Below the pieces are notes generated by a model. That model saw only the letters and a program-made list of their open reading frames with translations, had not been told where the DNA came from and searched no databases. A program made the position numbers and the translations under genes. A stretch of DNA of 64,000 nucleotides from Escherichia coli (GTDB lineage: Bacteria; Pseudomonadota; Gammaproteobacteria; Enterobacterales; Enterobacteriaceae). The stretch lies in assembly GCF_044324875.1 (NCBI RefSeq), contig NZ_CP172185.1, one strand, 5' to 3'. Within the stretch, counting starts at the first letter, position 1, and every line of letters begins with the position of its first letter. Shown here in pieces: positions 37,160 through 39,220 of the stretch.

Positions 37160-39220
37160 ATGCTACCAAAAGCCGCCCGCATTCCCCACGCCATGACGCT
37201 TCATGGTGATACGCGCATCGATAATTACTACTGGCTGCGGGACGATACGCGTTCTCAGCCGGAAGTCCTGGACTACCTGCAACAAGAAAATAGTTACGGT
37301 CATCGGGTGATGGCCTCGCAACAAGCCTTGCAGGATCGCATCTTAAAGGAAATCATCGACCGCATTCCGCAAAGAGAAGTTTCTGCTCCCTATATAAAAA
37401 ATGGCTACCGCTATCGGCATATTTATGAACCAGGCTGTGAATATGCTGTCTACCAGCGTCAATCGGCATTCAGCGAAGAGTGGGATGAGTGGGAAACATT
37501 GCTCGATGCCAACAAGCGCGCAGCTCATAGTGAGTTTTATTCGATGGGCGGAATGGCGATTACGCCCGATAACACCATTATGGCGCTGGCAGAAGATTTT
37601 CTTTCCCGACGCCAGTACGGCATTCGTTTTCGTAATCTGGAAACAGGTAACTGGTACCCGGAACTGCTGGATAACGTTGAACCCAGCTTTGTCTGGGCAA
37701 ATGACTCCTGGACTTTCTACTATGTACGCAAGCATCCAGTTACGCTGCTGCCTTATCAGGTCTGGCGTCACGCCATCGGTACGCCAGCATCGCAAGATAA
37801 ACTGATCTACGAAGAAAAAGACGATACCTATTACGTCAGCCTGCATAAAACGACCTCGAAACATTATGTAGTCATTCATCTGGCCAGCGCCACCACCAGT
37901 GAAGTTCGCCTGCTGGACGCGGAAATGGCCGATGCCGAGCCGTTTGTTTTTCTGCCGCGCCGCAAAGATCACGAATACAGCCTTGATCACTACCAGCATC
38001 GGTTTTATTTGCGTTCCAACCGCCACGGCAAAAACTTTGGCTTATACCGTACCCGTATGCGTGATGAGCAACAGTGGGAAGAGTTAATTCCGCCACGCGA
38101 TAACATTATGCTGGAAGGGTTTACGCTGTTTACCGACTGGCTGGTGGTAGAAGAGCGTCAGCGCGGGTTAACCAGTTTGCGCCAAATCAACCGCAAGACC
38201 CGGGAAGTCATTGGCATTGCCTTTGATGATCCGGCCTATGTGACTTGGATTGCCTACAATCCAGAACCTGAAACCGCGCGATTGCGTTATGGTTATTCTT
38301 CCATGACCACACCAGACACTCTGTTTGAACTGGATATGGATACCGGTGAGCGTCGTGTATTAAAACAAACGGAAGTTCCTGGTTTTGATGCGGCGAATTA
38401 CCGCAGTGAACACCTGTGGATAGTCGCCCGTGATGGCGTCGAAGTTCCGGTTTCGTTGGTCTATCATCGCAAACATTTTCGCAAAGGACACAACCCATTG
38501 CTGGTGTATGGCTATGGTTCTTACGGCGCAAGTATTGATGCCGATTTCAGTTTTAGCCGCTTGAGTTTGTTAGATCGTGGCTTTGTCTACGCCATTGTCC
38601 ATGTTCGCGGCGGCGGTGAACTGGGGCAACAATGGTACGAAGACGGTAAGTTTCTGAAGAAGAAAAATACGTTTAATGATTATCTTGATGCCTGCGATGC
38701 ATTGTTAAAGCTGGGCTATGGCTCTCCTTCGCTTTGTTATGCGATGGGCGGGAGTGCGGGGGGCATGTTGATGGGTGTTGCAATTAATCAACGCCCGGAA
38801 TTATTCCATGGCGTTATCGCCCAGGTACCGTTTGTTGATGTTGTAACAACGATGCTTGATGAATCAATTCCTCTTACCACTGGTGAGTTTGAAGAGTGGG
38901 GGAATCCGCAGGATCCGCAATATTACGAGTACATGAAAAGCTACAGCCCGTATGACAACGTCACCGCACAGGCTTATCCGCATTTACTGGTAACGACCGG
39001 TTTACACGATTCTCAGGTGCAATATTGGGAACCGGCAAAATGGGTCGCTAAATTGCGCGAGCTGAAAACCGATAACCATCTTTTATTGCTCTGTACCGAC
39101 ATGGACTCAGGCCATGGCGGTAAATCTGGCCGCTTTAAATCGTACGAAGGCGTAGCGATGGAATATGCTTTTCTGGTCGCGCTGGCGCAGGGAACATTAC
39201 CCGCTACGCCTGAGGATTAA
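37160..39220 (+). CDS. ptrB: Oligopeptidase B (protease II)
   Basis: 686-aa ORF; prolyl-oligopeptidase family with Ser nucleophile in GGSAGG. Confidence 0.95.

Follow-up and report, generated by a model that had tools for sequence, protein, structure and literature searches.

Convergent coding sequences that stop with TAA, TAG or TGA cannot overlap by 1, 2, 3 or 5 nt, and at an overlap of 4 nt, the length at which the number of cases jumps, the shared tetramer can only be TTAA, TTAG, CTAA or CTAG (Lillo & Krakauer 2007, PMC2174442). The same study reported 58 convergent overlaps in E. coli, with rho-independent terminators predicted for 23 of the 116 genes involved, and noted that the rho-independent terminators of overlapping convergent genes must sit within the coding sequence of the partner. 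Term-seq has placed 99 transcript 3' ends genome-wide in a class termed 'primary and antisense' (Adams et al. 2021, PMC7815308), and Rho-dependent transcripts have been found to end just after U-less stem-loops, to which they are trimmed back and which are protective against PNPase and RNase II (Dar & Sorek 2018, PMC6061677). For hundreds of E. coli convergent pairs, SEnd-seq data gave rise to a model in which head-on collision of polymerases leads to termination (Ju et al. 2019; Wang et al. preprint).

Here we describe four pairs of convergent genes that meet at their stop codons within one stretch of 64,000 nucleotides of E. coli DNA, referred to herein as the window. In the reading we prefer, to which we assign a probability of about 0.75, they are ordinary examples of how E. 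coli core-genome genes meet tail to tail with no spacer, with transcripts ending at embedded hairpins and Rho limiting read-through.

Geometry, frequency and conservation of the junctions

Running from flhA to manX, the window is part of an E. coli chromosome, and the complete E. coli genomes of the collection match it at 99.2% identity at most. We placed 66 annotated genes on it. Junction coordinates were read directly from the window, and gene ends were cross-checked with the ORF lists and with the RefSeq annotation of K-12 MG1655 and of strain KE55, the nearest of the complete E. coli genomes; both annotations give the same gene ends. Direct reading confirmed the four stop-to-stop junctions of the original prediction to the nucleotide, in agreement with the ORF lists and RefSeq. 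The genes and their junctions are as follows:

16860-17381, plus strand: ruvC (ORF list, RefSeq)
17379-17385, both strands: TAAgTTA, the ruvC (plus) and yebB (minus) stops with 1 nt between them (sequence, RefSeq)
17383-17985, minus strand: yebB (ORF list, RefSeq)
37160-39220, plus strand: ptrB, oligopeptidase B (ORF list, RefSeq)
39217-39220, both strands: TTAA common to the ptrB (plus) TAA stop and the exoX (minus) TAA stop, a 4-nt tail-to-tail overlap
39217-39879, minus strand: exoX, exodeoxyribonuclease X (ORF list, RefSeq)
43030-43686, plus strand: pphA, Ser/Thr phosphatase 1 (ORF list, RefSeq)
43684-43689, both strands: TAATTA, in which the pphA (plus) stop adjoins the yebW (minus) stop, gap 0 (sequence, RefSeq)
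43687-43878, minus strand: yebW, 63 aa, DUF1482 (RefSeq)
59661-60470, plus strand: rlmA, 23S rRNA m1G745 methyltransferase (ORF list, RefSeq)
60467-60470, both strands: TTAA common to the rlmA (plus) and mntP (minus) TAA stops (sequence, RefSeq)
60467-61033, minus strand: mntP, Mn2+ exporter (ORF list, RefSeq)

All eight genes are annotated in RefSeq and lie tail to tail on opposite strands, and their proteins and synteny are kept in other genera. At ptrB/exoX and rlmA/mntP a permitted 4-nt tetramer holds both stops, TTAA in each case, while pphA/yebW (gap 0) and ruvC/yebB (gap 1) fall outside the 4-nt overlap class and are abutments. Since overlaps of 1, 2, 3 and 5 nt are impossible, a gap of -4 is the tightest state that can be reached without placing one stop deeper in the other coding sequence. 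The occurrence of two TTAAs is expected because TAA is the commonest stop, and TTAA is likewise found in 27 of the 34 overlaps of -4 at ptrB/exoX in other species.

The original prediction presented this as a recurring architecture of the window. We counted 12 convergent CDS junctions in the window; their gaps are 52, 164, 1, 147, 131, 54, 163, -4, 0, 767, 143 and -4 nt, and the gap is 1 nt or less at four of them. As a background we used four arbitrarily placed 50-kb regions of K-12, which contain 31 convergent junctions. At six of these the gap does not exceed 1 nt, and four of the six are overlaps of -4:

amiD/ybjS, gap -4
ybjD/ybjX, gap -4
ycaM/ycaN, gap 0
yfeH/ypeB, gap -4
yhbQ/yhbS, gap -14
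yrbL/mtgA, gap -4

At this background (p = 0.19) the binomial probability of at least 4 of 12 is ~0.18, and tight junctions are not significantly enriched in the window (4/12 vs 6/31 in the K-12 sample). Gaps of exactly -4, 0 or 1 are far above the expectation from a smooth spacer distribution. The excess of tight gaps extends over the E. coli genome and is not local to the window, and the notion that the architecture is peculiar to this region did not hold.

We examined how far each junction is kept beyond E. coli. For ptrB/exoX, an ExoX scan with one genome per species yielded 80 Enterobacteriaceae loci, 77 of which carry both genes. The stop-to-stop distance among these 77 species is -4 in 34, -19 in 22 and 0 in 8; rarer negative values are -143 in one species and -15, -14 and -10 in one each, and positive values are +2 in one, +3 in two, +6 in two, +12 in three and +38 in one. 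With a maximum of +38, a normal terminator-sized spacer is essentially never seen at this junction among the 77 species. The exact junction state flips between species and the tight packing stays. At pphA/yebW, 28 of 29 species have a gap of 0, the exception being K. pneumoniae (-4), and the abutment is kept despite varying stops (TAATTA, TGATTA, TAACTA, TAATCA, TGATCA and TAGCTA) and despite PphA identities down to 53% in this species set; YebW protein identity is 78-98% across genera. At rlmA/mntP, Salmonella, Citrobacter, E. fergusonii and Enterobacter (4 of 6 other genera) share the gap of -4, and two Klebsiella have +3; two MntP homologues (P0011 and P0090) have no encoding contig on record. 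The 1-nt gap at ruvC/yebB also occurs in Salmonella, Klebsiella and Citrobacter. In Providencia yebB is not adjacent to ruvC, and this genus is uninformative for the junction. The conserved geometry fits a long-lived compaction that may be held where further deletion would harm a coding sequence.

Hairpins within partner genes and mapped 3' ends

According to the original prediction, none of the four junctions has room for a terminator. We defined a canonical intrinsic terminator as a G+C-rich stem-loop followed directly by at least five T in eight, and a scan of all four junctions with this definition found none within ~500 nt of ptrB/exoX and rlmA/mntP. Matches elsewhere occurred at the chance rate; the only ones are the yebV terminator at 43953-43973 (minus strand) and a candidate within ruvC at 17221-17244 (minus strand). 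The latter was considered as a yebB terminator and rejected, as it is conserved RuvC coding sequence with a weaker stem in Salmonella.

The fold energy past each of the eight stops was then ranked against 1500 random antisense-of-CDS positions in the same window. Strong hairpins start 7-9 nt past four of the eight stops, those of ruvC, rlmA, exoX and mntP, and each lies within the coding sequence of the partner:

17389-17414, plus strand: ruvC 3' hairpin CGCCTCGGTCAGTTCCGGCTGAGGCG, then TTTCC (tail to 17419), within the last 12 yebB codons
39184-39210, minus strand: exoX-downstream hairpin GGCGTAGCGGGTAATGTTCCCTGCGCC, 7 nt past the stop, within the last ptrB codons
60424-60460, minus strand: mntP-downstream hairpin with arms CTGCCAGA and TCTGGCAG, 7 nt past the stop, in rlmA codons C-Q-T-D...L-W-Q
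60481-60501, plus strand: rlmA 3' hairpin GCGTCCAGAGGATCTGGACGC, in mntP codons V-Q-I-L-W-T, with no U-tract after it

The hairpins have energies of -17.2 to -18.2 kcal/mol for ruvC (P 0.012), -15.6 to -17.5 kcal/mol for rlmA (P 0.013), -17.8 kcal/mol for mntP (P 0.013) and -16.3 kcal/mol for exoX (empirical P 0.025), which places each of the four in the top 1.2-2.5% of the 1500 random positions (P ~0.012-0.025). Four of the eight transcript ends carry a hairpin that starts no more than 9 nt past the stop and has an energy of at most -15.6 kcal/mol; the probability of at least four in eight is 6e-5, with a threshold that was set post hoc, after the data had been seen. Folding of the first nucleotides past the stop gave no notable hairpin downstream of pphA, yebW, ptrB or yebB. 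The arms of the mntP-downstream hairpin are invariant in seven genera, and the exoX-downstream hairpin is a predicted 3'-end-protecting stem-loop. That a terminator has no room at these junctions is consequently a misleading description, as hairpins lie 7-9 nt past the ruvC, rlmA, exoX and mntP stops, inside the partner coding sequence.

Published K-12 data allowed these positions to be compared with transcript ends. We used the Term-seq and bicyclomycin data of Adams et al. 2021 (eLife, PMC7815308), with 3' ends from supplementary file 1 and Rho regions from supplementary file 2. K-12 is a different strain and holds the region in the opposite orientation to the window; the printed 61-nt flanking strings are identical to the window. 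Positions of Rho regions are coarse, the scores having been computed over 800-nt windows. The following features fall at the junctions:

17419, plus strand: ruvC 3' end (K-12 1946817, minus; Term-seq), 38 nt past the stop, after the hairpin and TTTCC
17494 (approximate), plus strand: Rho region antisense to yebB (K-12 1946742, minus), 113 nt past the ruvC stop, score 7.8, p 1e-29
38746 (approximate), minus strand: Rho region antisense to ptrB (K-12 1927253, plus), ~471 nt past the exoX stop, score 6.3
60507, plus strand: rlmA 3' end (K-12 1906214, minus; Term-seq), 37 nt past the stop, 6 nt after the hairpin
K-12 1906268, minus strand: Rho region at the rlmA/mntP junction, score 10.2, p 1e-31 (bicyclomycin; Adams et al. 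2021)

Two of the four stop-proximal hairpins, those of rlmA and ruvC, thus coincide with mapped 3' ends, which are classed as 'primary rlmA, antisense mntP' and 'primary ruvC, antisense yebB', respectively (Adams et al. 2021, PMC7815308). The rlmA end at 60507 is followed by CGATGC and qualifies as one at a stem-loop without a U-tract. The ruvC hairpin at 17389-17414, with TTTCC after it, is only in part of the U-less kind, and this hairpin with its short UUUCC tail may be a weak intrinsic terminator backed by Rho. The 3'-end mapping that had been proposed as a check on the overlap is therefore available for rlmA and ruvC: in the published K-12 Term-seq data their ends lie past the stops, and none lies upstream within the gene's own coding sequence. 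The same Term-seq data list no 3' ends for exoX, ptrB, mntP, yebB, pphA or yebW, and of the eight transcript directions, those of rlmA, ruvC and exoX have a documented 3' end or Rho region and the other five have neither.

Base composition past the stops is at most mildly Rho-like, with raw C/G ratios per 100 nt of 1.15-1.94 for rlmA and 1.1-1.9 for exoX; past the ruvC stop the ratio is 1.3-1.5 and then falls below 1. In wild-type total RNA-seq, yebB has 98 antisense versus 3.3 sense reads per million (~30-fold).

The original prediction that each pair transcribes into the partner gene is borne out in K-12 for two directions, with the rlmA and ruvC 3' ends lying 37-38 nt past the stops, inside mntP and yebB. 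The antisense overlap that it anticipated is likewise supported, by Rho regions at rlmA/mntP and on the strands opposite yebB and ptrB, and by the presence of exoX-ptrB and yebW-pphA on a published excludon list.

From these data, which show the mechanism in part and for K-12, we propose the following sequence of events. Deletion bias and stop-codon drift would bring two ORFs together, and we infer that this is how the junctions arose; compaction would come to an end with a poorly constrained C-terminal tail lying over the 3'-end hairpin of the neighbour and the stop beside the neighbour's stop. RNA polymerase would then go past the stop and transcribe a stable hairpin encoded in the last codons of the partner; the steady-state 3' ends of ruvC and rlmA, at 37-38 nt beyond their stops, lie 4-8 nt after such a hairpin. 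Read-through polymerases would make untranslated antisense RNA and would be terminated by Rho within ~100-500 nt, and exonucleases would trim the read-through RNA back to the hairpin. Constitutive antisense overlap would as a result be short, at tens of nucleotides, and would be accompanied by weaker, Rho-limited read-through. For these weakly expressed genes, any regulatory effect on the partner is probably small.

Possible selection on the hairpins and rival accounts

The C-terminal tails of mntP, yebB and ptrB might be shaped mainly by selection on the 3'-end hairpin of the neighbour and not by protein function, and the junctions would then be tuned, conserved devices that set the antisense dose received by the partner. 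The rlmA hairpin is kept in six other genera (seven sequences in all), and in Enterobacter ludwigii it reads GTGCCCAGAGGATCTGGGCAC versus GCGTCCAGAGGATCTGGACGC in E. coli, with two compensatory pair changes. These Enterobacter changes are non-synonymous in MntP (V to A and T to A), and selection on the neighbour hairpin would explain why both restore pairing. A hairpin with a U-rich tail is also kept downstream of ruvC in three other genera with different stems (four sequences in all). The stem differs from that of E. coli both in Salmonella (CCCTCAGC...GTTGAGGG followed by GTTTCA) and in C. amalonaticus (ATCATCTCAGTC...GATTGGGATG followed by TATTTAT), and the YebB tail that overlies it diverges across genera while the hairpin is rebuilt. 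Judged from the sequences, in small samples of seven and four, this suggests that the partner's C-terminal tail overlies a selected RNA element at rlmA and ruvC.

At exoX, a strong hairpin is found downstream in 55% of 77 species, versus 8% on the side downstream of ptrB. RNAalifold on 76 species predicted no pairs and no consensus structure in the region downstream of exoX; a specified hairpin was 74% paired in these 76 species, with a covariation of 0.114 versus 0.104 in shuffles (25/500). With no consensus and weak covariation, we rejected the exoX-downstream hairpin as a proven conserved structure, and it may simply reflect coding constraint on PtrB. That all three tails are shaped mainly in this way, and that the junctions are tuned to a dose, we regard as doubtful.

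The original prediction also raised possible transcriptional interference at such junctions. In its strongest form, spacer loss would have been selected so that reciprocal antisense transcription makes the paired genes mutually exclusive, as programmed excludons, by RNA polymerase collision or by RNase III cleavage of double-stranded 3' ends; rlmA versus manganese-induced mntP and heat-shock pphA versus yebW are the examples proposed. In line with this, exoX-ptrB and yebW-pphA are named among 165 E. coli convergent pairs (Sanmartin et al. 2025, PMC12288877), the geometry has been kept over long evolutionary times, antisense reads exceed sense reads at yebB, and p19-captured double-stranded RNA occurs in exoX. 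The p19 signal was rejected as evidence for a 3' overlap, as it maps near the exoX 5' end and not at the junction. However, the main mapped 3' ends reach just 37-38 nt into the partner, with Rho limiting the remainder, and mntP-rlmA and yebB-ruvC are absent from the ExcludonFinder list (PMC12288877). No opposing expression is reported for the four pairs, and about one fifth of all convergent pairs share such geometry in the K-12 sample. The junction state also flips freely between species (-19, -4, 0 and small positive values), as in neutral packing, which argues for packing over a tuned device. Interference or excludon-type regulation is possible at the four pairs, but programmed mutual exclusion is an unlikely origin for them.

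Alternatively, head-on polymerases meeting at a pausing-prone hairpin could set the 3' ends by bidirectional termination that is independent of Rho and of U-tracts, and the U-tract-less hairpins that flank both sides of the rlmA/mntP junction speak for this. Read-through there is nevertheless strongly bicyclomycin-sensitive, with Rho scores of 10.2 at rlmA/mntP and 7.8 antisense to yebB, and at both rlmA/mntP and ruvC/yebB a 3' end was mapped in one direction only, with Rho dependence reported (Adams et al. 2021). Expression of the partner genes yebB and mntP is weak, and few collisions are to be expected; termination efficiency in the collision model rises with expression (Wang et al. preprint). 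We consider this account quite improbable. Finally, although yebW has just 63 aa and long-ORF listing by itself over-extends starts, the idea that the junctions are meaningless, through chance or through the mis-calling of one ORF per pair, is scarcely credible, as the stops stay in place whichever start is called, RefSeq lists all eight genes in both K-12 and KE55, and the conservation of proteins and junction geometry across genera effectively refutes it.

Comparison with described convergent systems

Much of what ordinary, hairpin-ended and Rho-limited junctions entail is already published, namely the overlap class, embedded terminators and the clean-up of antisense read-through by Rho, as well as the rlmA and ruvC 3' ends and the listing of two of our pairs as excludons. 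What we add is evidence that all four junction geometries are conserved across genera and, from sequence comparison, hints of compensatory evolution in two embedded hairpins. The findings matter little beyond careful annotation, but they make a clear textbook illustration: the absence of an intergenic spacer is not the absence of a terminator, bacterial 3' UTRs and 3'-end hairpins can sit in the coding sequence of a neighbour and constrain its C-terminal residues, and Rho cleans up antisense read-through at such junctions. For genome engineering, edits to the 3' ends of mntP, yebB and ptrB may alter the stability or termination of rlmA, ruvC and exoX mRNAs.

With respect to the 4-nt overlap class of Lillo & Krakauer 2007, ptrB/exoX and rlmA/mntP are exactly such cases, whereas pphA/yebW (gap 0) and ruvC/yebB (gap 1) are excluded from the counts of that study; they belong to the same squeezed class without a strict overlap. 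Convergent short-spacer overlaps such as those of exoX-ptrB and yebW-pphA are described for E. coli MG1655 in the RNA-seq-based ExcludonFinder map (Sanmartin et al. 2025, NAR, PMC12288877). The excludon concept also takes in mutually exclusive expression or RNase III processing of the overlap, and the likeness here is in the overlapping transcription. For the convergent E. coli pair mscL-arfA, which the excludon list (PMC12288877) likewise contains, a 3' antisense overlap is reported to have a regulatory consequence (Life Sci Alliance 2023, PMC10070815). Regulation of mscL-arfA is reported from experiment, and the four pairs studied here are likened to it by geometry and transcript overlap. 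The rlmA and ruvC ends are themselves members of the 'primary and antisense' list of Adams et al. 2021 and do not differ from it. In mechanism there is a likeness to the system of Dar & Sorek 2018, in that rlmA likewise ends just after a U-less stem-loop, with a bicyclomycin-sensitive region at the junction; unlike the cases described there, the rlmA and ruvC stem-loops are encoded within the coding sequence of a convergent gene.

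Insertion sequences and the lineage of the window

Three insertion sequences lie in intergenic regions of the window:

5276-5973 (element about 5220-5990), IS1 copy between cutC/MicL and torY
35352-37003, ISEc46 (IS200/IS605 family) between yebE and ptrB
35352-36521, minus strand, tnpB of ISEc46
36578-37003, plus strand, tnpA of ISEc46
54305-55071, IS200 copy inside the htpX/yebQ convergent spacer
54350-54964, Y1 transposase ORF of the IS200 copy
54362-54496, Rfam match to STnc490 within the IS200 copy

The htpX/yebQ spacer measures 767 nt in the window versus 45-46 nt in K-12 (MG1655) and in KE55, the closest complete E. 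coli genome with RefSeq annotation, and, given the IS200 copy that it holds, we conclude that a mobile element was inserted into a short convergent spacer. The IS1 copy, which encodes InsA (91 aa) and InsB (167 aa), lies in a gap of 1162 nt that spans only 386 nt in KE55. K-12 has no ISEc46 between yebE and ptrB, which are separated there by 208 nt; in the window its insertion has created an additional convergent junction, yebE/tnpB.

When positions 36000-46000 were compared with a collection of 5426 complete E. coli genomes, only 239 of the 5469 matching records reached at least 99% identity, the best at 99.2%. In a scan of species representatives, ExoX was 100% identical in 'Escherichia sp. 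MOD1-EC7003'. A possible source of the window is a less well sampled Escherichia lineage with many insertion sequences.

Structures around rlmA/mntP and in the exoX/ptrB spacer

Two further elements lie near the rlmA/mntP junction:

61164-61260, minus strand, manganese (yybP-ykoY) riboswitch in the mntP leader (Rfam)
61385-61466, long inverted repeat directly 3' of the yobD stop

The riboswitch scored 41.9 bits (E = 6e-10), just below the Rfam gathering score of 45, and is therefore missed by a default Rfam scan; it was recovered only in E-value mode. On each strand, unrelated models of microRNA precursors matched the inverted repeat, which is probably a terminator or else a REP-like palindrome.

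The hairpins past the mntP stop (60424-60460, minus strand) and the rlmA stop (60481-60501, plus strand), on either side of the shared TTAA, have the core arms CCAGA and TCTGG in common. A Q...L-W motif (CAG...CTC TGG) is found at the C-terminal end of both RlmA and MntP. For these matches we offer no account other than coincidence.

Among the 77 Enterobacteriaceae species with a locus holding both exoX and ptrB (one genome each, found with ExoX), only S. enterica subsp. arizonae has a real spacer between the two genes, of 38 nt (region about 6661-6735 of that locus, L034). This spacer is itself predicted to form a hairpin, GCGACGCTCACAAGTCGTTGC, of about -15 kcal/mol (40-nt window fold).

Other overlaps in the window

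Overlaps of other kinds were also observed:

42755-42899, overlapping sRNA pair SdsR/RyeB (plus strand) and SraC/RyeA (minus strand), between yebY and pphA
48458-48489, co-directional yebS/yebT (letA/letB) overlap of 32 nt

The sRNAs are a known and fully antisense pair, and the pphA start follows about 130 nt downstream of them. The yebS/yebT overlap far exceeds the usual ATGA-type overlaps of 4 nt, as at cmoB/cmoA, yecE/yecD and znuB/znuC.
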